Source of the DNA: Dictyostelium discoideum
Lineage: Eukaryota
Length of the DNA stretch: 64,000 bases
Reading direction: 5' to 3'
NCBI GenBank assembly: GCA_000004695.1
Contig: CM000154.2
Location: forward strand, 4,224,001 to 4,288,000
Made by a program: the position numbers and the translations under genes. Positions 45,452 through 63,945 of the stretch are shown piece by piece (within the stretch, counting starts at the first letter, position 1; each line of letters starts with the position of its first letter). The notes under the pieces are model-generated. The model saw nothing but the letters and a program-made list of their open reading frames with translations, did not search any database and was not told the DNA's origin.

Positions 45452-47689
45452 ATGAGAGAATATTCAGATATTATTAATAGTGGTGTAAATAGAGGTGATA
45501 GATTACTTCATAATTTTTTCAACTCAATAAATTATCAATCAAATTATATGGTTGATAGAGTTGAAAGAGCTTTTGGTGGTAGTAAATTAGCTGGTGACGT
45601 TTTCAAGATTACTGCTGGTGTTGGTTTACCATTAGCTTTAGGTTATGGAATTCATCGTTACATTTCTCAAAGACCAAAATTAAAAGAAAAAATTCCATGG
45701 GGTCAATTAAGAAATGGTGGTAATGTTATCTCTCGTGTTTTAAATAATCATAATATTAAGTAAATATTTTATTTTATATTTTTTTTTATTATTTTTTTTT
45801 TCTATTTATTAATTTTTTTTTTTTTTCATCATTATTATTTATTTTTTTATAGGTTTGCATTTTCATTAAGTGAATTACAAGATATTAAAACAATTAATGA
45901 ATGCAGTTTAGAAAATAAAATGAAAGTTATTCAAATGAAAAATTATAATAATGCAATTGTTGCTGCTGGTGGTGTTTTTAGAATGACTGGTCAAATCGGT
46001 GTAGTTTTTGTAAATGGTGGTCCAGAAATTATTTCAATGATTAATGGTATAGTAAATGCAAAAGTTGATAACATTCCATTAGTTGTTATTGCAATTAATC
46101 CAATTATTGGTGAACAAGATTTTGTAAGTATTTAATTTAATTGTTTTCAAAAAAAAAAAAAAAAAAAAATTAACTAATTATTATATTTTATTTATTATTT
46201 TTAAAAGGATAAAAAATTATTAAATAATTATTTTAAATATATTACTGAAGTAACAAATATTAATGAAATTTCACAAGTATTAGAAGATTCATTTGCAAAA
46301 TCAGTAGAGAGTGAAAATTCAAGTTCAGTTTTAATTGAAATTTCACAATCATTATTATTACCAGAAGAGGAAACTAAAGAATATTTAGAGAATTTCCAAA
46401 AATCAAGATGGTATATTAATAAACTTTGGGATGAAATTAGTGGTAGAACATTTAAATATCCATCTGAAACCACTGAAATTAGTTTCCATTATCCAAGATT
46501 ACGTATGGTTGAAAGTCCAAAGAATAAACATGTTGAAAATGTTATGAATCATTTGGTAAATGCAAAATATCCAATTTTAGTAATTGGTGATCAATGTTTA
46601 GTATCAAACAATATTAATAATAAAGATTTAAATTTGGAAAGTTTGAAATTATCCATTCAATTATTAGGTGTGCCAACATTTTTAAACGGATTTTCAAAAT
46701 GTCTTGGAACAATGGGTATTAATAACATTGTTAATGATAGTATGGAATATGCATTGGGACGTTGTGATCTTTTAATTAGTATGGGTATTTCATCACCAAG
46801 TTTCATCAATGATTTAAATATCGATACATTGAAAACCAAGGTTTATTCTATTATGGAATTCTCACAACCAGCTAGTTTTTCAAATAAATTTGGTTTTGAT
46901 CTCGTTGAAAGACATGCTTGTGATCCAAGTGCATTCTTATTACATCTAGGTTTTATTTTCCCAAAATCTCATTCAAACAAATGGAATAAATGGTTATATG
47001 ATTTACAAGAGAAAGATTCAATTGGTTTATTAATAAATGAAAAGAAATCTGATATTAAAGTTGACAATGTTAATCCATTTATGTTGATTAGATCATTGAA
47101 AGATACATTCAAAAGATTGGAAAAACCACCAGTAATCGTTAGTGATAAAGGTGAATTTTGTGATGTTGCAAACACAACTTTGGGTGGAAGCGTACTTTCA
47201 TTAATTCAACCAAGTAAATTCTCCTCTCACAGTAGTTCAATTGGTTTGGCAATCGCTTCAAAGCTATGTTTCCCTGAAACTGATGTTTACATGTTAACTG
47301 ATAACATTTCAATTATTAACTGTGTTCAAGAATTTGGTACTCTATCATACTACCGTTTACCAATTAATATCATTGTTGCTAATAATGAAAAACATTCAAT
47401 CATTAATCCATTAGGTCGTGATATTGTAAACTTACAAAACCAACAACCAAAGAATTTAATGGATAATCAATCAAAGAATCATGAAGCTCCAAGAACTGCT
47501 TTCCATAAGATTATGAACGCCTATGGTGGTAATGGTTTTATTATTAATAAAGATCATGGTTCAAAAGATGATATTGAAAATATCATTTTAGATGGTCGTG
47601 AAAAATCAATTAATACTCATCGTCCAGTTTTGTTCAATATTTGGACTGATATTCCAAAACAAAGTGGTATTGGTGGTGGTGCAATGTAG
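45452..47689 (+). CDS. thiamine-pyrophosphate enzyme family protein, ILVBL/2-hydroxyacyl-CoA-lyase-like, three exons, about 686 aa
   Basis: Exons are 45452..45759 (MREYSDIINSGVNRGD…, donor GTAAAT, phase 2), 45853..46123 (…AIVAAGGVFRMTGQIGVVFVNGGPEIISMINGIVNAKVDNIPLVVIA…, the TPP N-terminal/pyrimidine domain, donor GTAAGT) and 46208..47689 (central domain and C-terminal TPP-binding domain …VIVSDKGEFCDVANTTLGG…MLTDNISIINCVQEFGTLSYYRLPINIIVANNEKH…). The canonical GDG of the GDG-X(24-27)-NN motif is replaced by TDN. Confidence 0.7.
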
Positions 47690-48353
47690 ATCCAATTTTT
47701 TTTAAAAAAATCAAATAATTTTTAAATAAAGTTTTTTATATATTTTTTTTTATTATCATTTTAATTTTTATTACGTTTTGTTCTTTTTTTTTTTTTTTTG
47801 TAAGATATAATAATATTAGTGGAGTAAAAAAAAACCTTGTGATATTGGTATATATCATTTAAAAAAAAAAAAGAATGACCATTTCATCTGGGTGTAGGTT
47901 ATTTCGAAACACAACTATCCCTAAACACCAATTTTATTTTTCACATAATACTCTTTTTTTTCAAAATTTAAAATATATAAAAGAAAATAAAAACAAAATT
48001 ATAAAAATCTTTAGGTTTAGGTTTTTTTTTTTTTTGGTAAAATGTTTTTTTTTTATTTAAAATCATTTAAACGATCAGAGGCCTCAGAAAAGGAAAGCGA
48101 AATCAAAGAAACCTAAATTTTTTTTTTTAAAAAAAAATATTAATACATTGAGTTGAAACAAATAAATTATTATTGTTTTTGTATGTTTTTAGGTTGGGTT
48201 GAATTAAATCATAAATGCGAATAAATAAATTTTTTTCGTCACTATAATTAAGAGAGATTCCCATAAGTTTTTTTAATCATCTAAAAGCAACCCCACCACA
48301 TAAATGAAAGTGTATTTAAAATTTATTACTTACTTTTTGGTTGGCTTTGGTTG

Positions 48354-48391
<38 letters not shown>

Positions 48392-48850
48392 GCGATCGAA
48401 AAAAAAAAAAAGAAAAAAAAATTGAAAAATTAAAAAAAAAAGTAAAAAAAAAAAACACAACGTTTTTTAATCTTCAAGAAACGTTTTAAAAATTAAAAAA
48501 ATTTTTTTTCAAAAAAACATTTTTTTTTTGCGCCAACTCTTTTTTAAAATTTTATTTATTTTTAATACAAATAAAACACCCAAAAGTACAAAATAATATA
48601 ATTCATTTTTTGAAATTGTTTTTTTATTTTAAAGAAAAATAAAGGTTTGAAAAAAAAAAAATAAAAAAAAAAATTGATTTGGTTTATTTTTTTATTTGAT
48701 ATTTTCTTTGCTGTGAATAAATAAAAAAAAAAGTTTCCAATATTTTGGTCAAATCCAGAACATTTTAAAACACTCGATTTTTATTTTTTATTTTATTTAT
48801 TTTCTGAATAATGCCATTTTTAATTTCTGATTGTTTTATTGATTAGAAAA

Positions 48851-48905
<55 letters not shown>

Positions 48906-48923
48906 AATCCAGTAATAAAATTT

Positions 48924-50935
48924 CTATATTTCTTTAATAATTTCTACAGATTCATCTAATTTACAAATATCTAATGATTGATTAAAATTATATTGTAAAA
49001 TAATTTTTGGTATATGTTTGGGTATTGATCCTTCAATTAGTGGTGTATTCATTTCTCCTAATGTTAATTGCTTTATTGAATTTGGAATGATTCCTGGTGT
49101 TAGTTGATGTTTGAATCCTCCATAAATACTGAGATATGTTACAGAATTTGGTATTGAATTTATTTCTAATGATTGTTTAGTACCATTTAAATATAAGAAT
49201 TTCGCTCCATCACTAATTATACCTGGTGTTATTAATTGATCGAAAACATCATTGAAATGTAAATTAGTGACTGATTTAGGAATTGATCCAACAACTAATG
49301 GTGATTTAATATTATAGAAGTATAAATATTTTACACTTTCTGGTATAATACCTGGTGAGAGTAATTGTTTAAAACCATCATTAAACGTAATTGATTCAAC
49401 TGAATTTGGAATTGAACCAATCTTTAATTCACTTTTAATATTATTTAAACTTAACTCTTGTATACCTTCAGGTATCAAAGAAATGGTACCGATTGATAAT
49501 GGTTGATTAAATCCATTTTGTAAACAAAGATAAGATACAGTTTTAGGAATTGATCCAATCTCTAATGAATGTTTGATATCTCTTAAATTCAAATATCTGA
49601 CGCTCGAGGGAATAATACCTGGTTCTAGTGATTGGGAAAATCCATCACAAACATGCAAATGATTTACAGAATTAGGAATTGAACCAATCTTTAATGGCTT
49701 TTTAATGTCGTGTAGATATAAATATTTAGCCCTCGAAGGAATAATACCAGCTTCAATTGATTGATTAAATCCATCATGAAATGATAACCACCCAACACGT
49801 GATGGTATTGATCCAATTACCAAGGGTGTTTTAATATCATATATATCTAAATATTCAATACCAAGTGGTAATACACCTGGTTCTAAACTTTCTTTAAATC
49901 CATCTAATAATATTACATGCCAAAAATTTTTATTTGATTTAAGTTTTAATAAACTACCGCACTCTTCTCCAAGTGCAATTTTAACATCATCTTTTGGTAA
50001 TTCACTGTTCTCTGAATATAAATAATACTTTTCACCACTACCAAATTCTATTTTTAAAATAAAATGTTAATATACTTTTATTATTTACATATATACTTGT
50101 AATTAAACATACTTTTTATAAATTTATAATTATTTTCATCAGTTTCAATCTTAAATTTTTCATTTAATTCATTATTATTTTTATTATAATTATTATTATA
50201 ATTATTATTATTATTATTATAATTATTATTAATAAGTTCATATATTGATTCTAAATTATTTTTAATTTCATCAATTATTTGATTATTGAATTTAATGATT
50301 TGATTATTATATTCTTTTAATTTATTTTGATTATTGATATTTATATTATTTTTTAATAACAATAATGATTGTTGATATTGTTTAATTAGTTCAATTGTAT
50401 CAGTACCTTTATGATAACCAATAATATCTTCATCACCATAATCATAATCATTATAATTTTGTTGAATATTTTTTATTGAATTGTTTAATTTATCAATCAT
50501 TGGGTTATTATTATATTTATTACTATTATTATCAATATTGATTGAGGAGGTAATAGTTGCATTTATTAATGTATTTTCTTGGAAAATTGTTTCTAATTGT
50601 TTTTCGATATCTAATTCAAGTATTGAGAGTATGTGATGAAGTTTTTTAAATTCATCTTTAAGTAATTTTTTATTTTCATCATTTTGTAATTGAATTTCAT
50701 TGAAAATTTCATTGGAATCTTTTAATGTTTGTTTATTATCTCCAATTCTTTCAAGTAATTTCGGGTAAACATCGTCTTTAAAATTATTCATCATTGAAAG
50801 AATGTTTGATATTGATATTGGTTCTAATCCATGACGATGATGAGAACCATTACTGGATGCACATAAAATACAACATGGTATTAATTTACAATCTAAACAT
50901 AAAAGTTCAACATTTTTACTTGGATGGATTGAACA

Positions 50936-50986
<51 letters not shown>

Positions 50987-51001
50987 TGTTAATGATATCA
51001 T
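48924..51001 (-). CDS. B-box zinc finger plus coiled-coil plus FNIP-repeat protein (intact unit 1 of a tandem array), two exons, about 670 aa
   Basis: Exon 1 is 51001..50113 (MISLTNNNN…[42 protein letters not shown]… is a B-box-type C/H cluster, followed by coiled-coil, ending …NNYKFIK, donor GTATGT, phase 1). The intron is 65 nt (50112..50048). Exon 2 is 50047..48924 ([22 protein letters not shown]… then FNIP repeats GSIPxSV..L.F.DGFNQ…). The only boundary pair that keeps the frame was chosen; a GTAAAT/49-nt alternative would create a stop. Confidence 0.7.
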
Positions 51002-51355
51002 AATATAAATTAAAAGGTCTGATAGTTTTTTTTATTGTTCAAATGAAGTTATTATTGATTTTTGATGGTGAAAAAAATGAAAAAAAAAAAAAAAAAATGA
51101 AAAAAAAAATTATTATCTTAAATATTTGGGTGTTTTATTTTAAATTTTCAATCTTCCCACATCCACAATTTATTTTTTTTTTAATTAAAAAAAAGTTAAA
51201 AACAATAATTTAAAAATAGAAAAAGATAAAAAAAAAAAAAAAAAATTAAAAAAAAATAAAAAATAAAAAACCTAATACAGTAAAATATTTTAATTCTATT
51301 TCTATTTCTAATTTTATTTAATAATTTCTACAGATTTATCTAATTTACAAATATC

Positions 51356-52934
51356 TTATGATTGATTAAAATTTTTTTGTAAAATAATTTTTGGTATATT
51401 TTTGGGTATTGATCCTTCTATTAGTTGTGTATTCATTATTCCTAGTGTAAATTGCTTTTTTGAATTTGGAATGATTCCTGGTGTTAGTTGATGTTTGAAT
51501 CCTTTATAAATACTGAGATTTGTTACAGAATTTGGTATTGAATTTATTTCTAATGATTGCATAGTATCATTTAAATATAAGAATTTCACTCCATCACTAA
51601 TTATACCTGGTGTTATTAATTGATCGAAACCATTTTCGAACCATAAATCAGTGACTGATTTAGGAATTGATCCAACGACAAATGGTATTTTAATATTATA
51701 GAACAATAATTTTTTTTCACTTTCTGGTATAATACCTGGTGGGAGTAATTGGTTAAAACCATTATTAAATGAAATGGATTCAACTGAATTAGGAATTGAC
51801 CCAATTTGTAAATTTAAATTAATTCCATTATAAAATTATAATAATATAACGCCATTTGGAATTGAACCAACCTTTAATTCACTTTTAATATATAAACTTA
51901 ATGTTGTATACCTCCAGGTATCAAAGAAATGGTTTCGATTGATAATGGTTGATTAAATCCATCTTCTAAGCAAAGATTATCAACAGTTTTTGGAATTGAT
52001 CCAATCTCTAATGAATGTTTGATATCTCTTAAATATAAATATTTGACACTTGAGGGAATAATACCTGGTTCTAATGATTGGGAAAATCCATCACAAAAAC
52101 CCAAACTATTTACAGTATTAGAAATTGAACCAATCTTTAATGGCTTTTTAATGTAGAATTAAAATTCCAACACTAGAAGGAATAATACCATCTCCAATTG
52201 ATTGATTAAATCCATCATGAAATGTAACCACCCAACACTTGATGGTATTGATCCTTTTACTAATGGTGTTTTAATATCACATATCACTAAATATTCAACA
52301 CCAAGTGGTAATACCCCTGGTTCTAAACTTTCTTTAAATCCATCTAATAATATTACATCCTTTATATTTTCATTTGATTTGAGTTTTAATAAACTACCAC
52401 AATCTTCTCCAAGTGCAATTTTAACATTATTTTTTGGTAATTCACTGTTCTCTGAATATAAATAATACTTTCCAATACCAATTTCTATTTTTAAAATAAA
52501 ATGTTAATATACTTTTATTATTTACATATATACTTGTAATTAAACATACTTTTTATAAATTTATAATTATTTTCATCAATTTCAATCTTAAATTTTTCAT
52601 TTAATTTACTATTATTATTATTTTTATAATTATTATTATTATTATTATTATTATTATTTAGTTCATAAATTAATTTTAAATTATTTTTAATATCATCAAT
52701 TATTTGATTATTGAATTTAATGATTTGATTATTATATTCTTTTAATTTATTTTGATTATTGATATTTATATTATTTTTTAATAATAATAATGATTGTTGA
52801 TATTGTTTAATAAGTTCAATTGTATCAGTACCTTTATAATAACCTATAATATCTTCATCACCATAATCATAATCATCATAATTTTGTTGAATACTATTAA
52901 TATTTTTTATTGAAATATTTAATTTATCAATCAT
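51356..52934 (-). pseudogene. decayed array unit 2: FNIP-repeat exon with frameshifts/indels plus C-terminal half of the B-box/coiled-coil exon; zinc-finger part deleted
   Basis: Nucleotide-level copy of unit 1, with the same flanks (ttatttaataatttctacagatttatctaatttacaaatatc…). The FNIP part is broken into ORFs of 116, 62 and 68 aa in different frames with scrambled blocks at 51800..52200. The B-box exon is retained only from …[13 protein letters not shown] (52518..52934). Its 5' side is replaced by an (ATT)n tract and unrelated sequence. Confidence 0.55.
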
Positions 52935-52937
52935 TGA

Positions 52938-52943
<6 letters not shown>

Positions 52944-53030
<87 letters not shown>
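52944..53030. repeat. (ATT)n microsatellite, about 29 units, at the truncation point of array unit 2
   Basis: Seen directly. The same (ATT/AAT)n runs (poly-N codons on the minus strand) occur at the 5' ends of the other units (50940..50995, 60150..60235, 62070..62135). This is a plausible substrate for slippage or unequal exchange. Confidence 0.85.
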
Positions 53031-53035
<5 letters not shown>

Positions 53036-53975
53036 TATTGTCACCAATTAAATCTGTAACATCTGCACCTTCAATTCACTATACACCAGTAAATGATAAT
53101 AATCAACAACCTCAACTACCATCACAACCCAATGAAGAATTTCAATTTACTGTACCAACTACTCCAAGTGATAAAAAGAAGAAAAGGGGTAGTTTTTCAA
53201 GTAAATTAAAAAGATTAAGTATAACATTTTCCAAAGATTAAAAATTTTTAAATTTTACTTTTTTTCTTTATAGAAAAATCTATCATTTAAATATCAAAAT
53301 AAAAAAAATCTATCACAATCTATAATCAAATCTTTTTTTTTTTTTTTTTTTTTTTTTTTTGATTTTTTGGTGTTTTGAAGATATTTTTTATTTAAAATTA
53401 ATAATTATTTTTTAAAAAAAGGTAGAAAGATAAAAAAACAAAAAGGTTTGGATAAATTATTTAGTGAGAGGCTTCAAATATAATAAATAAAAAATAAATA
53501 TAAAAAATTAATTTTTGGGTCTGAGGTTGAAGTCACACAATTTTTAATTTTTTTATTTTAATTATTTATTATTTTAAATCAATTTTCAAAAATACTGTTT
53601 TTAAGATTGGCATTTTTTAGTGTTTTGAAGATATCTTTTTTTCGATAATTAGTTTTTTAAATTTTTTTATTTTTTTTATTTTTTTTTTTTTTATTTTAAA
53701 GATTCGCACATTCACCAATTAAAAAACACAAACCCTAAAAAATGTAATGAGTGAAAGATAACACTCCATTTTGACACCTGCTTGTGTTGAATTGAACAAA
53801 GATCTAAATCATGGGTTAAAAAAAAAAATAAAAAAAAAATAATAATAATAGACTTAAAAAAAAAAAATATAAATACTTTAAAACTTTTTTTTTTTTTTTC
53901 ATTCCCAAAAATAAATTAAATAACTTTTAAAACAAATAATTTAAATAAAAAAATAAAAAAATAAAAAATAAAAAA

Positions 53976-56282
53976 ATGATTAATATTGAAGATATTTCAA
54001 AATCTTCAAACCAAAGTGAAGAAAAACAATTAAAAAGTACAAGTTCAAAACCAAAATACTCATTCGCAGCAAAAAGTTTATTCAAAGGTTCAAATAATAT
54101 TACACCATATTATTTATCAACCAGTAATACATTCCAATGTGTAGCATCTGAGTCAATTCAAACATGGCTTCTTTCGGATGATGGTCATATCTTTACATCC
54201 AGTGGTAATTTTGTTTTAGATGTTTCATCAGGTGGTTATTTTGTTGAATTAGTACAACTTAATTCAAATTCAAAAACTCAAATTTGGACAATTGATACAA
54301 CAAATAATAAAATTCAAAACCAAGGTAATGGTAATTACCTTGATATCGACTGTTTCAATATTTGTGTTGCACCTTTAAATGGAAACGCAACTCAACAATG
54401 GACAACTTTTAGAAGAGCACCAATTCCAACTGGTAATTGGGGCTACTTTCAAAGTGAACAATTGGGTTCAAATAATTATTGGGGTTTAAGTGTATTAAAT
54501 AATAGTACATCATATAATACTAGTGTAGTAATGAATAAAGTTCAAGCAAAATCAAAAGGTCAAATTTGGCAAATGACAAGCGATGGTCACATTTTATCAC
54601 GTTTGGATGGTAATTTAGTATTAGATATTGGTCCATCAATTAATGGTAGTACAACAAACTATTATTTAAATACCAATGTTTACAAAGCAAATGATCTAAT
54701 GCAACAATGGGGTATCAACGAAAATAATCAAATATTCAATCAATATTATCCAAATTTATGTATTGGATTCGTTGGTCAACTTGGAGTTGATTCAACTGTT
54801 AATTGTGTATTAGCTCAACCAAGTAGTGCTTGTGATACTTGTTTCCAATGGATTGCAAATCCAACCTATTCATTAAACCAAATTGTTAGTGAAGTACCAG
54901 AACCATTTCCAGCTTACACAAGTGGTGATTTATTAGCATCATATCAATACCTTAGTAATGATGCAACTTCTAATTTTACTGATGATATTAGATCACTTTA
55001 TACAGGAATCAATGTTAGTTTACAATCCTTTTTAAGTATTGTCACCAATGCAACTTGTCCATCATCAATTCATTCAACTGAAGATTTTTCAAATGTTCAA
55101 AATCAAATCAAAACTGAACTCATCTATGCAATCGATGTCCGTTTAGTATTTGAAAACTATTCTGGTTTTTATAGTAAATTATTTAGTCAAGGTAGTTCAA
55201 ATTTAACAAATTTAGCAAATTTAATTAATGTTGATATGTCATCTAATCAAATGGTTAATGCAAATTATACTGATGCAATTACTAGTATTTTTTATTCACT
55301 TATTTCAGAGATTCCAGTAGGTGGTTCAATAATTGCAAACATTGGTCAATCAGCAGTAGAATTTGGTGAATTAATGTCTCAAAGTAATTATCAAGGTGCA
55401 TCAACCTATCAAGTTGAATTAAGTCAACTCTACACTCATTTAAATACAAACTATGAAAATGAAATGGCAAATGCTCAAAGTATGAAGGATACCATTTTAC
55501 AAGATTGGGGTATGATGAGTAAAACTTATGCATTATGTTTCTTACCAACCAATGATCCTTCCTCTCTCAATATGAATGGGTTAGACTTTGAAAAAATTTC
55601 AGATGTTGCATCTGTAGCTTACGAAATTGCAATGATTCAAATGTTATTACCAACTACTTATCAAATTTACTTTACATCAGCTGGTTATTGGGTACCATAT
55701 TCAGATGGTGATTTCGCTTATAGTGATAACTCTGGAACCTATATTATGGCCACTATCAAGTATAGTAATTCTTATCCTCCAAAGGAATTGACTGATAAGT
55801 TATGGAATAATGGGGTTTCAAAACAAGAATTTTTCTTGTCAGCTTATGGTTGGAATTTAGCTACCTCGCTCACCTACTACAATACTACTAACCAGTATAG
55901 TAATATCTTTAAATTAGCCTTTCCAACAATTAAAAATTTTACAGGAGTACCAATGCAATTTGTAATGACCAATGATGGTGATAATCTTGGTAATTTCACA
56001 GTCAAAACTCATTTTGCAAAATTCTTTTCAACATATTACAGTGTTGGAGATCTTGGTCATCATTATTTCGACATTGCTGTAACTGATATTAACAAAAACA
56101 AGGTTGCAAATTTCACAGTTGACATTAAATTAAAAGCTCTCGAAGGTAGTTATGTTTCAATCAAAACTGGTTCATTAGTTGTTCAGCCAGGTTATGCTGT
56201 TGGTAATCCAATTTGTAATCAAGGTAGTTATTCTCTAATGTTTTCTGCTTCAATTTTAATTCCAATTTATAAATCAGAATAA
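53976..56282 (+). CDS. ricin-B-type (beta-trefoil, QxW) lectin domain protein with large C-terminal helical plus beta domain; possible toxin-like protein, 768 aa
   Basis: Single ORF. Residues about 40..330 contain repeated QxW lectin signatures (QIWTI, QQWTTF, QIWQM, QQWGI, FQWIANP) spaced as in tandem beta-trefoils. The C-terminal roughly 440 aa has a predicted helical region followed by a beta-rich tail (…[59 protein letters not shown]…). No obvious signal peptide. Confidence 0.65.
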
Positions 56283-56399
56283 AAAAATAAAATCATCAGA
56301 ATATAAAAACCAATTTATATTCTTATCAATTATTAAAAATTAAAAATAAAATAAAATAAAATAAAATAAAATCCTTAATCGACTATAAAAAAAAAATTG

Positions 56400-56780
56400 T
56401 TGGATGGTGAAAAGAAAATGATCCCCAATAATAAACTAGTAGTAAATAGTTGAGTTATTATTTATTATTTATTTTTTATATTTTTTTTAAAAATGATTTA
56501 ATTGAAAAGGAAATTCTATGGGTTTGTAAAGTTCCACTGCCATGATGAACATTGAAACCCACAACATTGCATTCTAATAATGAATCATGTTAGCACCAGT
56601 ATCAATATTATTGATTATTTGAAGTGAGTTGTTGAGTTTGGCCTAATCATAAACCAGGTACACATAGTTTATCAGTGAAGGAGGCGTTTGGATGATTGAT
56701 TGTGTTGTTGGTTGAGATGAATCGAAAAGATTACCTTAGTAGCTGATAGAGGTGTTGAACTATTACTACTATATATTATT

Positions 56781-56846
<66 letters not shown>

Positions 56847-57590
56847 GCATTATTTACCAAGTATAAATCCTTTTGAATTGAATTAATAGTCTCATTGCTC
56901 CACGATAATTGGCAGTAGAAGTGGCGATTGACTACTATAATCAGAATCCTAAATTTTTTGTCTTGAAATAGGTGGTGTTGTTGCTTGTGTTTCTGTTACA
57001 AATAAATTTGTAATAATTAGAACAAAGGAAATTACCACCAATATCAATAGCCTTGAGAAGGTGGATCACTAGTTCTACATAATTGATGAATGGAATAACA
57101 AGTATGAGTACGGGTATACCCAGAACGACTAACAGAATCAACGGCGGAACAAACTTTTTGTTTTAGTTTACATCGTGGACAACCATAGCATTACGAATGT
57201 AGAACTATGGTGGATTATTAAAGATATCAAACAATGGATGTCTTGCAGGGTATACGTTGATACAACTGAAGTGACTTGGATACGATCAGGTTTCTCCAAA
57301 CAAATCCAATGATAGATTGCGATGTTTTAAATTTATTCTTCATATAAACCATATGGTTGAAAAGATTGTTACAGATTTACCACCTGTGATAACAATGGGT
57401 TGCATCAATCAACTTCAGAGCGTAGATTTCATGAATTCTCTGGCTTGTTGAGATTTTGTCTCATTTTCTTTTTCAGAGTTACCATTTACTGGCTAGATTC
57501 GAAGAGTAAGAATTGATTCATGAGCTGCAATTGTTTCGATTGTGATGCTGGTGATTTGATATTGTTGTTGATGTTGTAGTTGATGTTGAA
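56400..57590. other. about 1.1-kb GC-richer (roughly 38-40% GC), homopolymer-free, ORF-less island; possible foreign/TE-derived fragment or non-coding transcript
   Basis: Composition shifts abruptly from >85% AT to mixed sequence with no poly(A/T). Stops occur in all six frames (longest ORFs 62 and 66 aa). Contains a (TTG)22 microsatellite. It abuts, at 57596, a copy of the array's promoter-proximal element exactly where a gene body would be expected. Confidence 0.4.
56782..56847. repeat. (TTG)n microsatellite, about 22 units
   Basis: Seen directly within the GC-richer island. Confidence 0.9.
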
Positions 57591-57595
57591 AAAAA

Positions 57596-57734
57596 TAATT
57601 TTTTCTATTGCTCAAATGAAGTTATTATTGGTTTTATGGTGGGAAAAAAAATAAAAAAAATGTTAAAAAAAAATTATTTTTTTCAAATTTAATTATTTTT
57701 ACAACTTAATTTTTTTAATAATTATAAAAAATAG

Positions 57735-57780
<46 letters not shown>

Positions 57781-58100
57781 AAATTAATTAGCAGCATCAA
57801 ACATTAATCGGTGCACAACAATTTTTATTTTTACACATCAAATCTCACCTATATTATTTCAATATCTCACATAAAAATTTATAATTTAAATTGATCTTAG
57901 ATTATATGATAAAAAAAATCATCAAATTTAATTTTTTTTTTTTTTTTTGATGAATTAAATTTCATTAATTTAGTAATAGTAGTTTTTGGTTCTTCATATC
58001 CAAATATAATTTTATTTTTATATTCTTAAATAATTTATTAGAATAAAAAAGATTTTTTTTATTTTTTATTTTTTATTTTTTTTTGAAAGATATTTATGGT
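57596..58100. repeat. about 500-bp dispersed repeat, copy A (array-unit 5'-flank element)
   Basis: Near-identical over about 480 bp to 62184..62670. It starts with the motif ttctattgctcaaatgaagttattattggttttatggtg, which also occurs immediately upstream of the ATG of unit 1 (51040..51080) and unit 3 (60270..60310). Internally it contains …catcaaatttaatt-T(17)-gatgaattaaatttcat…, a T-run flanked by short inverted arms. Confidence 0.7.
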
Positions 58101-58327
58101 TGTGTTCAATTTTAAATTTGTAATCTACAAATTAAAAATAGTAATCCAAAAAAGAAAAAGAAAAAAAAAAAAGAAGATATTTACTTTTTTGATCAAAAAA
58201 AAAAAAACTAATTTCTTTAATCAATAAAACATTAACAATTTTTTACTTATAAAAATTTCCTATTATATTTTTTTTTTTCTCCATAAAAAATTTACTGTTA
58301 TAAATAGTTTATCTGGATTATTAAAAT

Positions 58328-58384
<57 letters not shown>

Positions 58385-58559
58385 GTGATTAACAATTAAA
58401 TATTAAATTAAATTTCATCATCAGTTAGGAATAGTAGTTTTTGTTCTTCAAATTCAAAAATTTAATTTTATTCTTATTTTTTTATTTTTTTTTTTGAAAA
58501 TTTTATAACAAATAATGTCATTTTAATTTCTGGTTTCATTGATTGGAATATTTTGGGTA

Positions 58560-59702
58560 TTGATCCTTCAATTAGTGGTGTATTCATTTTCCTAATGTTA
58601 ATTGCTTTATTGACTTAGTACAGTAGTATAATTTTGTATTATTCTATATTTCAATTTTTTTTAATAATTTCTACAGATTTATCTAATTTACAAATATCTA
58701 ATGATTGATTGAAACTTCTTTGTAAAATAATTTTTGGTATATTTTTGGGTATTGATCCTTCTATTAGTTAGATCAAAGAAATGGTACCTGATATATCTCA
58801 ACTTTAAAACTCTGACACTTGAGGGAATAATACCTGGTTCTAATGATTGGGAAAATCCATCACAAACATAAAAAATATTTACAGAATTGGGGATTGAACC
58901 AATCTTTAATGGCTTTTTAATGTCGTGTAGAAATAAATATTGAACACTCGAAGGAATAATACCAGCTTCAATTAATTGACTAAATCCATCATAAAATGAT
59001 AACCACCAAACACTTGATGGTATTGATCCTTTTACTAATGGTGTTTTAATATCACATATCTCTAAATATTTAATACCAAGTGGTAATACACCTGGTTCTA
59101 AACTTTCTTTAAATCCATCTAATAATATTACATGCTTAATATTTTTATTTGATTTGAGTTTTAATAAACTACCACAATCTTCTCCAAGTGCAATTCTATA
59201 ATTATCTTTTGGTAATTCACTGTTCTCTGAATATATATAATACTTTTCTCCAGTACCAAATTCTATTTTAAATTAAAATGTTAAAATAATTTTTTTATTT
59301 AAATAAATACTTGTTATTAAACATACTCTTTATAAATTTATAATTATTTTCATCAATTTCAATCTTAAATTTTTTACTATTATTATTACTATTATTATTA
59401 ATAAGTTCATATATTAATTTTAAGTTATTTTTTATATCATTAATTTTTTGATTATTGAATTTAATGATTTGATTATTATAATTTTTTAATTTATTTTGAT
59501 TATTGATATTTATATTATTTTTTAATAACAATAATGATTGTTGATATTGTTTAATTAGTTCAATTGTATCAGTACCTTTATGATAACCAATTATATCTTC
59601 ATCACCATAATCGATATCATCATAATTTTGTTGAATATTATTAATATTTTTTATTGAAATATTGAGTTTATCGATCATTGAGATATTATTATTTTTACTA
59701 TG

Positions 59703-59737
<35 letters not shown>

Positions 59738-60176
59738 CATTATTGATTGAAGAGGTTATATTTGCATTTTTTGATGAGTTTTCTTGGAATCCTGTTTCTA
59801 ATTGTTTTTCGATATCTAATTCAAGTATTGAGAGTATGTGATGAAGTTTTTTAAATTCTTCTTTGAGTAATTTTTTATTTTCATCATTTTGTGATTGAAT
59901 TTCATTGAAAATTTCATTGGAATCTTTTAATGTTTGTTTATTATTTCCAATTCTTTCAAGTAATTTTGGATAAACATCATCTTTAAAATTATTCATCATT
60001 GAAAGAATGTTTGATGTTGATATTGGTTCTAATCCGTGACGATGATGAGAACCATTAATGGATGTACATAAAATACAACATGGTATTAATTTACAATCTA
60101 AACATAAAAGTTCCAAATTTTTACTTGGATGAATTGAACATTTTTTATTTTTATTATTATTATTATTATTATTATA

Positions 60177-60224
<48 letters not shown>

Positions 60225-60281
60225 TGCTAATGATATCATAATATAAATTAAAAAGGTGTGATAATTTTTTCTATTATTCAA
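58560..60281 (-). pseudogene. array unit 3: B-box/coiled-coil exon intact (59295..60281, 328 aa) but FNIP-repeat exon internally deleted/decayed
   Basis: B-box [24 protein letters not shown]…[42 protein letters not shown]… has the same GTATGT donor and AATAG acceptor as unit 1. The downstream exon keeps the first few FNIP repeats (59230..58800), then jumps to the terminal …[14 protein letters not shown] block with stops. It might still encode a truncated protein. Confidence 0.45.
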
Positions 60282-60324
60282 ATGAAGCTACTATTGGTTT
60301 TATGATGTTAAAAAAAACAAAAAA

Positions 60325-60356
<32 letters not shown>

Positions 60357-60700
60357 TAAAATTTCTTAAATCTTTTGAGTGTTTGTTTTTAAATTTGTAA
60401 TCTTCTCACACCCACACTCAGACATACCCACACCCTCAATTATTTTTTTATTAATAGAAATAATAAAAATTAATTAACAGTAACTTATTTAAATGTTAAA
60501 AAAAAAAGTTCCAAATACAATCAAATCCATAACATTTTGATACTCAATTTTTATTTATTTTATTTTATTTTATTTTTTTATTTTCCAAAAATATTTAATA
60601 TTTGGATAATAAAGTTCATTTAATTTCTAATGGTTTTGTTGATTAGAATAAAAAAAAAAAAACATAATATTGTAATATAATTTTTTATTATTCTATATTT

Positions 60701-62073
60701 CTAAATTAATTTAATAATTTTTACAGATTTATCTAATTTACAAATATCTAATGATTGATTAAAACTACTTTGTAAAATAACTTTTGGTATATTTTTGGGT
60801 ATTGATCCTTCAATTAGTGGTGTATCCATTATTCCTAATGTTAATTCCTTTATTGAATTTGGAATGATTCCTGGTGTTAGTTGATGTTTGAATCCTTCAT
60901 AAATACTGAGATAGGTTACAGAATTTGGTATTGAATTTACTTCTAATGATTGTTTAGTATCATATAAATATAAGAATTTCACTCCATCACTAATTATACC
61001 TGGTGTTATTAATTGATCAAAACCATTACAGAAATAAATTAGTGACTGATTTAGGAATTGATCCAGCAACTAATGGTACTTTAATATAAAAGAACCACAA
61101 ATATTTTACACTTTCTGGTATAATACCTGGTGAGAGTAATTGGCTAAAACCATTATTAAATGAAATGGATTCAACTGAATTAGGAATTGACCCAATTTGT
61201 AAATTTAAATTAATTTCATAACAAAAGTTTAATGATTTAACACCATTTGGAATAATACCTGGTTCTAGTGATTGAGAAAATCTATGAAGAAATATCAATG
61301 TTTTAACTGTTTTAGGAATTGAACCAATCTTTAATTCACTTTTAATATTATTTAAACTTAACTCTAGTATACATTCGGGTATCAAAGAAATGGTACCTAT
61401 TGATAATGGTTGATTAAATCTATTTTCTAAACAAAGATGAAAAACAGTATTTGGAATTGATCCAATCTCTAATGAATGTTTGATATCCCCTAAGTTTAAA
61501 GAACTGACTTTTGAGGGAATAATACCTGGTTCTAATGATTGGGAAAATCCATCACAAACATGCAAATGAGTTACAGAAATAGGAATTGAACCAATCTTTA
61601 ATGGCTTTTTAATGTCGTGTAGATACAAATATTTAACACTATAAGGAATAATACCAGCCTCAATTAATTGACTAAATCCATCATGAAATGATAACCAAAC
61701 AACACTTGATGGTATTGATCCTTTTACTAATGGTGTTTTAATATCACATATCTAAATATTCAATACCGAGTGGTAGTACACCTGGTTCTAAACTTTCTTT
61801 AAATCCATCTAATAATATTACATGCCTAATATTTTTATTTGATTTAAGTTTTAATAAACTACCACAATCTTCTCCAAGTGCAATTTTATCATTATCTTTT
61901 TGCAATTCACTGTTCTTTGAATATAATACTTTTCACCACTACTAATATCTATTTTTAAAATAAAATGTTAAAATACTTTTATTTTTTACATATATACTTG
62001 TAATTAAACATACTCTCTATAAATTTATAATTATTTTCATCAATTTCAATCTTAAATTTTTCATTTAATTTAC

Positions 62074-62128
<55 letters not shown>

Positions 62129-62197
62129 GTTGTTATTGTTTGTTAATGATATCATAATATAAATTAAAAAGGTGTGATAATTTTTTCTGTTGCTCAA
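60701..62197 (-). pseudogene. array unit 4: FNIP-repeat exon with a frameshift (ORFs 200 and 122 aa in different frames) and B-box exon reduced to 72 aa (zinc finger deleted)
   Basis: ORF 61979..62197 ([21 protein letters not shown]…N-run…[31 protein letters not shown]) lacks the whole Cys/His cluster and coiled-coil. The 61026..61628 and 60701..61069 ORFs overlap out of frame. A degenerate stretch lies at 61640..61960. Confidence 0.55.
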
Positions 62198-62670
62198 AGG
62201 AAGTTATGGTTTTATGATGTGAAAAAAAAAAAGAAAAAATGTTAAAAAAAAAAATAAAAAAAAAAAAAAATTATTTTTTTCAACCTTAAATTAAGTGTTT
62301 GCTTTTAAATTTGTAATCTACTCAGGCACCCATAATTTAATTATTTTTACAACTTAATTTTTTTTAATAATCATAAAAATAGAAAAAAAAAAAAAAAAAA
62401 AAAACAAATTAGCAACATCAAACATTAATCAATACACAACAATTTTTATTTTTACACATTAAATTTTACCTATATTATTTCTATATCTCAGATTATTTGA
62501 TTTTTATCATCAAATTTAATTTTTTTTTTTTTTTTTTTTTGATGAATTAAATTTCATTAATTTAGTCATATCCAAATATAATTTTATTTTTATATTCTTA
62601 AATAATTTATTAGAATAAAAAAAGATTTTTTCTTTTTTTTTTTTTGAAAGATATTTATGGTTATAATAAA
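62184..62670. repeat. about 500-bp dispersed repeat, copy B (5' flank of array unit 4)
   Basis: See copy A at 57596..58100. Co-linear and near-identical, including the T-run with flanking inverted arms. Confidence 0.7.
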
Positions 62671-62925
62671 ATAAAAAAAATGATAAATTAATTCGTCACC
62701 AAAAAAAAAAATGGTGTGTTCTTTTCGAATCGGGCTTTTTTTTATTTTTTTTTAATTTTTTTTTTTTTTTTTTATTATTTTTACTTTCCCACTTTTCATA
62801 TTTAAACTAAAAAAAATCAAAAAATGTAAAATTAAAGTATTTATCTTTTTAATATTAAAAACAATAACAATATATATAAATTAATAAATAAGTTACTCAA
62901 TATTAAATTATTATTATTATTATTA

Positions 62926-62969
<44 letters not shown>

Positions 62970-62972
62970 GGA

Positions 62973-63945
62973 ATGTCACAAAATGATAAGAAAGTTTTTT
63001 ATATTACTGGTGCAAGTAAAGGATTTGGTTTAGAATTAACCAATCAATTACTTGAGAGAGGATTTAATGTTGTGGCAACTTCAAGAAATAAACAACAATT
63101 ATCAAATAGTGTGAATAATAAATTTGTTACAAATGATAACTTTTTAGCATTACAAGTTGATCTCACATCCAATGAATCAGTAAAGAATTCAATTGATGAA
63201 ACAATCTCAAAATTCACTCGTATTGATGTTATCATTAATAATGCAGGTTATTCACAATGTGGTACAATTGAAGAATTAACAGATAAAGAAATTAGAGATA
63301 ACTTTGAATGTAATGTTTTCGGTGTTATCTCTGTAATTCGTAATGCACTTCCACATTTACGTATAAATAAGTTTTTTGCAAATGGGCCTAGAATAATTAA
63401 CATTTCATCAATTGCTGGATTTACAGGATCATTTCCAGGATTTAGTATTTATTCATCAACTAAATTCGCATTGGAAGGTTTAACAGAAGGTTTGAATGAA
63501 GATTTGAAAGAGTTTGGTATACATGCATCAACTGTATTACCAGGTTATTTTAGAACATCATTTTTAGAGAAAGGTTCAGTGGCAGTTCCATCACATCCAA
63601 TTAAAGAATATACAGCAGTTAGAAAAATTCAAGAAATTCATGAAAATCAAATTAATGGTAATCAACAAGGTGATCCTGTAAAAGGTTGTAAAGTTATCAT
63701 TGATCATGCATTATCTGAAAATCCAACAACTCATCTTTTCTTAGGTCCAGACTCAATGAAATATGCTCAATCCAAAATTGAAGCAATTCAAAATGATATC
63801 AAATCAAATTATGTATGTTTTTTTTTTTTTTTTTTATTTCATTAATAATTCTTTATTTAAATCATAATATTAATATTAAAATTTTTATCATTATTGTTGA
63901 ACATAAATTTAGGATGCAGCTTCTAAAACTGATTTCACAAATTAA
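62973..63945 (+). CDS. short-chain dehydrogenase/reductase (classical SDR), two exons, about 290 aa
   Basis: Exon 1 is 62973..63812 (MSQNDKKVFYITGASKGFGLELTNQLLERGFNVVATSR… is the TGxxxGxG Rossmann motif; also NNAGY, and catalytic S…YSSTKFALEGL giving YxxxK; donor GTATGT). Proposed short terminal exon is 63913..63945 (DAASKTDFTN*) after a TTTAG acceptor. The terminal exon is inferred from splice consensus only. Confidence 0.75.

Follow-up and report, generated by a model that had tools for sequence, protein, structure and literature searches.

The interval between a TPP-enzyme gene and an SDR gene on chromosome 5 of Dictyostelium discoideum AX4 contains four B-box/FNIP units, the gene cupH and an ORF-less island. 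We analysed it within a window of 64,000 nt (the whole stretch of DNA under study), whose positions are used throughout. Four published REMI-seq sites of neighbouring genes fall on GATC/CATG at one unique offset, which fixes the window as chromosome 5 (DDB0232432) 4,224,004–4,288,003 and the island as approximately 4,280,403–4,281,703. Two ORFs coincide exactly with known genes: 26883–28034 is DDB_G0290549, and 53976–56282 is cupH (Q54FW5/XP_635652). The features of the locus are as follows.

51217–52973, minus strand: B-box/FNIP unit 2, 5'-truncated, half of a gene whose other half, the promoter, faces the orphan
52945–53035, no strand assigned: (ATT)n tract at the left insertion junction, equivalent of the poly-Asn tract in the middle of the unit 2 protein
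53042–56282, plus strand: cupH cassette, with 934 bp of upstream sequence and the 768-codon cupH ORF, homologous to the first cup-cluster gene with its flanks
56283–56663, plus strand: 3' flank duplicated along with cupH, 88% identical to the flank of the first cup-cluster gene up to about 56525
56461–56473, minus strand: two overlapping AATAAA signals within the cup-derived flank
56664–57594, minus strand: body of the orphan sequence, 931 bp, 33.7% GC, all six frames interrupted by stops, no DNA or protein relative found
56782–56847, no strand assigned: perfect (TTG)22, which reads (CAA)22 on the minus strand
57047–57220, minus strand: segment with exon-like codon-position GC, a candidate fossil coding fragment
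57595–57690, minus strand: 5' leader and proximal promoter common to B-box/FNIP units, containing the element at 57603–57641
57691–58140, minus strand: upstream promoter region, a copy of the region 5' of unit 4 (62250–62700) and of that of the single unit in other strains
57726–57778, no strand assigned: A53 homopolymer within the promoter copy, read as T on the minus strand

Mosaic in structure, the island combines three pieces, namely a copy of a promoter and leader, an orphan sequence, and a cup-derived 3' flank. The original prediction had described one ORF-less block of about 1.1 kb. Its length and its lack of an ORF held up; its unity did not, the part up to 56663 being flank that was duplicated with a cup gene. 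The island does occupy the gene-body slot of an array unit, downstream of a real promoter-proximal element, as proposed. This 39-nt element occurs a single time, at 57603–57641, 2 nt from the position first given for it. The approximately 45 nt that surround it are repeated 20–65 nt 5' of the ATG in three B-box/FNIP units, in agreement with the claim that array units share the element near their start codons. By blastn, the leader region is 87% identical to both 62177–62252 and 60261–60338 and 79% identical to 51022–51127. The sequence that follows the element is, as had been stated, no B-box exon: its minus strand has no blastn or tblastx similarity to any unit.

The promoter piece comprises approximately 545 bp of promoter and the first 45 nt or so of the leader, in the orientation and register of the array. 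The whole of 57595–58140 aligns with the region 5' of unit 4, and part of it finds its best match (88–89%) in the upstream region of the single unit carried by other strains. The similarity to the units breaks off at 57595, with approximately 21 nt still to go to where their ATG would lie. One proximal element of approximately 50 nt, GTGGGTG..GATTACAAATTTAAAA.CAAACAC, is missing from the copy; units 1, 3 and 4 keep it, and it is the sole G/C-containing block in their proximal promoters. A displaced copy of this element lies at 58110–58125. Compared with the array units, then, the island has their promoter and 5' leader in the same orientation and register and lacks their ATG, B-box exon and FNIP exon; the coding parts lie 4.6 kb off, as unit 2.

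Unit 2 and the promoter at 57595–58140 are one gene, split by a 4.6-kb insertion that consists of the cupH cassette and the orphan. Unit 2 is normal to the left of the poly-Asn/(ATT)n tract, and it is at this tract (52945–53035) that its homology to unit 1 resumes. Cup-derived DNA begins right beside the tract, at 53042. Since unit 2 lacks the piece from the leader to the poly-Asn tract and the promoter copy lacks everything after the leader, the two are halves of a single gene. Their break points are complementary, and together the halves miss approximately 480 bp of an intact unit. It had been suggested that imported DNA replaced a gene copy, and a replacement did take place: the 4.6-kb insertion, with its cupH cassette and 0.93-kb orphan, stands in place of approximately 480 bp of 5' coding region of one B-box/FNIP unit. 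What was replaced is part of a copy, not all of it.

The cassette derives from a second locus, the cup cluster. Across 53042–56663, the inserted DNA is 85–88% identical to the first gene of that cluster together with 934 bp upstream and 380 bp downstream. In the cluster, the 934-bp upstream part reaches into the 3' end of the preceding gene, which identifies the first cup gene of the cluster as the donor. The duplicated downstream flank includes a conserved 53-nt element at 56611–56663 (81%). It also carries the AATAAA signals at 56461–56473, where a transcript begun at the severed promoter would probably have its 3' end. As a source of the orphan, the cup cluster was rejected: homology ends at 56663, and beyond that point nhmmer finds the TTG repeat alone.

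The island is richer in GC than spacer DNA and falls within the range of this genome's exons. We measured 33.9% GC over 56501–57590, with 100-nt bins from 0.29 to 0.40, in place of the 38–40% first estimated. The island had also been called compositionally foreign, a description that the surrounding genes do not bear out: 34% GC is exon-like for this genome, with cupH at 30% and other genic kilobases of the window at up to 36–39%. In published medians, ORFs have 25% GC, lncRNAs 17% and intergenic DNA 13% (PMC5295588). The island lies well over all three, at the high end of the genome's exons. A GC content of 34% with no ORF is unusual in a genome whose neutral DNA has about 13% GC, and could reflect constraint or simply youth. 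The noted poverty in homopolymers was borne out as well: A/T runs of at least 6 nt number approximately 2 per kb here and 15 per kb in the adjacent intergenic DNA.

Reading frames in the island are no more open than those of random sequence. Stops had been reported in every frame, and we counted 22–32 of them per 413 codons in each of the six. The longest stop-free run measures 107 codons with the repeat included (shuffled sequences, 72 +/- 15), and both stop density and the longest open stretches are at the random-sequence level. On its minus strand, the orphan has no ATG ORF longer than one of 126 nt (57352–57227). The (TTG)22 tract that had been pointed out is present and perfect.

No relative of the orphan emerged from nucleotide or protein searches. 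Blastn, tblastx and nhmmer returned none in the 64-kb window and nine related loci, which made up the range of the search for a second copy. All six frames of the island were free of Pfam matches. A word-indexed search of 5.8 billion proteins with both strands gave no credible homologue, its single match (P0006) being rejected as low-complexity. Exhaustive HMMER searching with a 73-aa stop-free stretch, not the most coding-like frame by codon-position GC, had as its best match P0127. We discarded this as an artefact, one 24-aa match with 9/24 identities summed over tandem LRR repeats. The orphan had no match in PDB, plasmids or phages, nor any in metagenomes or prokaryotic genomes by exact-word scans. 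Homology to a functional parent gene was thus undetectable in the sequences and proteins searched.

The orphan could in principle be junction filler of repeated or foreign origin: a fragment of a transposable element, a nuclear plasmid, rDNA spacer, mitochondrial DNA or bacterial DNA. In favour of this, it occupies the very junction of a rearrangement, nothing nearby is related to it, and its composition is unlike that of the surrounding AT-rich spacer. The hallmarks of a mobile element are nevertheless missing. Terminal inverted or direct repeats were not found; apart from A/T runs, the sequence has no more than internal inverted repeats that are short and imperfect. No frame encodes a transposase, reverse-transcriptase, integrase or tyrosine recombinase domain (Pfam). 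The 64 kb contain no tRNA gene, the known target of TRE elements. Set beside the transposable elements of Dictyostelium (DIRS-1, Skipper, DGLT-A, TRE5/TRE3, DDT, Tdd and thug), the island is without LTR, ITR, TIR or element-encoded protein domains. Against the other sources stand the lack of any rRNA or other Rfam match, of any plasmid, phage, prokaryote or metagenome match, and of similarity to the rest of the window or the nine related loci. (CAA)n tracts such as the orphan's, moreover, are typical of Dictyostelium's own coding DNA. The transposon fragment that had been envisaged, for which terminal repeats, a transposon domain, a nearby tRNA gene and a second copy in the 64-kb window or nine loci are all wanting, therefore finds no backing here, and we consider a repeat or foreign origin of any kind improbable.

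Several features of the orphan hint at a coding past. These are its exon-like GC, its CAA microsatellites and one segment whose GC pattern by codon position is significant. At its local maximum, the period-3 GC contrast of the orphan is 0.45, compared with 0.29 +/- 0.05 in dinucleotide-type shuffles (p = 0.004), and equals the maximum of cupH (0.43). This signal comes from 57220–57047, where a 48-codon stop-free stretch (57190–57047) has GC1/2/3 of 0.44/0.58/0.15 and would encode a Cys-rich peptide (CYGCPRCKLKQKVCSAVDSV...). We found no B-box relation of that peptide. Along the island the phase of lowest GC switches, as frameshifts would produce. Codon usage is marginally gene-like at most: scored with a table trained on genes of the window, the best 40 codons of the orphan reach 7 bits against a null of -1.6 +/- 4.2 (p = 0.03), and the cupH median is about 20. 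Because no parent gene was found, it is weak statistical signals of this kind that argue for coding ancestry. On these hints we take the orphan to be, most plausibly, a decayed fragment of a former coding sequence.

The insertion is confined to part of the species. In two other D. discoideum assemblies, GCA_054859385.1 and GCA_054859355.1, the same interval between the TPP-enzyme and SDR genes holds one B-box/FNIP gene and no cupH. The orphan has no match in that interval of either assembly, where promoter-type sequence alone matches, and the syntenic loci of D. citrinum, D. dimigraforme, D. firmibasis and D. cf. discoideum lack it as well. As the insertion is missing here in two other strains and three sister species, the arrangement is a derived one that belongs specifically to the laboratory lineage or to some of the isolates.

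We favour, with moderate confidence, the view that the island is the scar of a rearrangement, where a promoter cut off from its gene is directed at decayed filler, probably of coding origin, with cup-type flank beyond it. On this account, 4.6 kb of DNA would have inserted, in the NC4/AX4 lineage, into unit 2 of the tandem B-box/FNIP array. The insertion site would have lain between the 5' leader and the internal poly-Asn tract, with the loss of approximately 480 bp that included the start codon and the B-box. The inserted DNA would have combined a dispersed duplicate of the first cup gene and its flanks (now cupH, 53042–56663) with the 931-bp orphan (56664–57594). The outcome would be a severed promoter and about 45 nt of leader aimed at the orphan, and behind the orphan a cup-derived 3' flank with AATAAA on the same strand. 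Were this promoter to fire, its product would be an unspliced non-coding RNA of approximately 1.2 kb with tiny upstream ORFs alone. We think that the island has no function of its own and is either silent or the source of low-level, functionless transcripts.

This anatomy is familiar from gene-disruption scars and from unitary pseudogene relics at the junctions of segmental duplications. There, too, a duplicated cassette, here cupH with its flanks, sits inside another gene, break points fall in simple repeats, the target gene persists as two complementary halves, and unalignable filler occupies one junction. The island departs from the pattern in its filler. Filler of this sort is usually short or traceable, whereas the orphan is 931 bp long, exon-like and without an identifiable parent.

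The published AX4 lncRNA catalogue contains no RNA from the island. Of the 621 lncRNAs and 162 antisense RNAs listed by Rosengarten et al., none lies at chr5:4,280,403–4,281,703 (PMC5295588). The list has nothing on chromosome 5 between 4,140,709 and 4,336,180, and no entry in the supplementary files searched starts or ends inside the island. One catalogued lncRNA, CUFF_4792_1 (chr5:4,401,751–4,403,131), had been a candidate for the island's transcript and was dismissed when the coordinate offset had been determined exactly. The catalogue was compiled by rRNA-depleted, strand-specific RNA-seq from cells in axenic growth and in standard development, and transcripts that run on from an adjacent gene were removed from it. 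Expression confined to particular conditions, or read-through from unit 3, would therefore be missed. An exact look-up found no RNA-seq contigs on record with the 41-, 66- or 62-aa ORFs. The check for RNA structure that had been called for was equally negative, with a chance-level match alone in Rfam (E = 0.52) and an unremarkable folding z-score of -1.1.

Gene models have been placed across the island all the same. Automatic annotation of an AX4-type assembly, GCA_054883475.1, gives a 155-aa spliced model at 56574–57352 and a 501-aa model that starts at the B-box exon of unit 3 and extends to 57415. Both models are without Pfam matches, and the 155-aa one could not be rebuilt with two introns. 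For the AX4 reference, accession numbering suggests that just two protein genes lie between cupH (XP_635652) and the SDR gene (XP_635655), and none in the island.

A different reading credits the severed promoter with activity: an active B-box/FNIP promoter would drive a polyadenylated non-coding RNA of approximately 1.2 kb across the orphan, and this RNA would have an acquired or nascent role specific to NC4/AX4. In its favour are some 545 bp of intact promoter and leader, AATAAA on the same strand at 56461–56473, exons assigned to the island by gene callers, few homopolymers, and a GC content of 34%, far over the medians of lncRNAs (17%) and intergenic DNA (13%). However, the promoter is without the proximal GC-containing element that units 1, 3 and 4 keep, the RNA is missing from the AX4 lncRNA and antisense catalogue at the mapped coordinates, and structural signal is lacking. 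Absent at this site from other strains and species, the island is not conserved either. The promoter-driven long non-coding transcript first proposed is so far unsupported, given its absence from the AX4 catalogue, the missing proximal element, the lack of an Rfam match and the folding z-score of -1.1, and we regard a captured promoter with a functional product as a rather unlikely explanation.

A narrower form of the idea places the island at the birth of a gene. The rearranged B-box/FNIP promoter, the 0.93-kb orphan and the polyadenylation signals of the cup flank might together make up a non-coding RNA or proto-gene specific to a strain lineage, present in NC4/AX4 and not in other isolates. 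We consider this improbable. The resemblance to lncRNAs that arise de novo by promoter capture is that a pre-existing promoter has been moved beside non-genic sequence in a single lineage. The island differs from them in that the conserved promoter element is missing and in that the lncRNA catalogue lists no transcript from it. Should the severed promoter prove active, the locus would offer a datable case of promoter capture making a new transcript.

The island also invites comparison with dutA, a 1.3-kb "development-specific but untranslatable" RNA. The comparison was prompted by a size of approximately 1.2–1.3 kb, the poverty in ORFs and the longest ATG ORF of 126 nt; the longest ORF of dutA is reportedly 126 nt as well. 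Like dutA, the island is ORF-poor, relatively GC-rich, approximately 1.2 kb long and located behind a pol II-type promoter, a resemblance and not an identity. dutA (DDB_G0294515) is on chromosome 4, where a REMI insertion marks it at DDB0232431 2,979,192, between DDB_G0285171 and DDB_G0285261 (PMC8386026). With the island on chromosome 5, location rules out that the two are the same gene, to which we attach practically no probability. In expression, too, they differ: dutA is abundant (PMC12750705), whereas the island is absent from the lncRNA catalogue.

We take the finding to be real but ordinary, and its chief value to be as an annotation warning and as the record of a laboratory-strain structural variant. 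In a genome this rich in AT, an island that resembles exons, has no ORF and follows a real promoter element can be taken for a hidden RNA gene. Here the apparent RNA gene is the junction of a gene-splitting insertion, and the annotation of an AX4-type assembly already puts spliced "genes" across it. At this site, the laboratory lineage has an expanded array together with cupH, a structural variant that other isolates lack there, and this variant is relevant for all who work with cupH or with these B-box/FNIP genes.

The interval bounded by the TPP-enzyme and SDR genes shows structural polymorphism. We compared window positions 47560–62950 with the related loci L008 (6000–10000) and L009 (5700–10000). 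The AX4 interval carries cupH and four B-box/FNIP units, two of which are truncated; two other D. discoideum assemblies carry one unit in the same interval, and D. firmibasis carries none. Unit 3 is a further copy with an internal deletion, retaining its B-box exon while its FNIP part is reduced to scraps at 58543–58616 and 58648–58768.

Features discussed here, in window coordinates unless a related locus (L001, L002 or L003) is named
51103–51153, 60352–60402 and 62268–62318: promoter element of about 50 nt
58110–58125: displaced copy of the promoter element
52945–53035: about (ATT)28, left insertion junction
57726–57778: A53, inside the promoter copy
58326–58384: T run of about 60
56611–56663; L003 12641–12686; L002 12587–12633: 53-nt cup downstream element
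L003 12888–12945: partial copy of the 53-nt element, inverted
56574–57352 (L001 12599–13377): 155-aa gene model
57415–60211 (L001 13440–16236): 501-aa gene model
58540–60416: unit 3, B-box exon at 59295–60281
62973–63845: SDR gene, Q54FW2

Two short elements stand out in the flanking DNA. Promoters of the B-box/FNIP units share an element, GTGGGTG..GATTACAAATTTAAAA.CAAACAC, that is conserved, spans about 50 nt and is the sole G/C-containing block in otherwise A/T sequence. It also lies upstream of related genes in the loci L007 and L009, and is a candidate transcription-factor site. The second, a relatively GC-rich element of 53 nt, sits about 330–380 bp 3' of cup genes and is conserved at 81% identity, unlike the diverged spacer that separates it from the cup gene.

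The AX4-type assembly GCA_054883475.1 (L001) matches the window over the stretch with the very long ATT, A and T tracts at 0 mismatches, differing by gaps alone (2–3 gap openings). Its gene table places a spliced 155-aa model within the ORF-less island and a 501-aa model that joins island sequence to the unit-3 B-box exon. Neither model has a Pfam match, and both are probably artefacts.

For the SDR gene at the edge of the interval, the top non-dictyostelid matches are Bacteroidota SDR oxidoreductases (51–55% identity), which suggests an old horizontal acquisition. There is a tandem duplication of the gene in the sister species.

The neighbour table of the published AX4 lncRNA catalogue (PMC5295588, File S6) contains an oddity in the region chr5 4.32–4.54 Mb. 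All lncRNAs at chr5 4,336,574–4,403,131 are assigned an identical pair of 'nearest genes', DDB_G0290669 and DDB_G0290749, which lie 220 kb apart; the gene set behind the table looks to have a gap.
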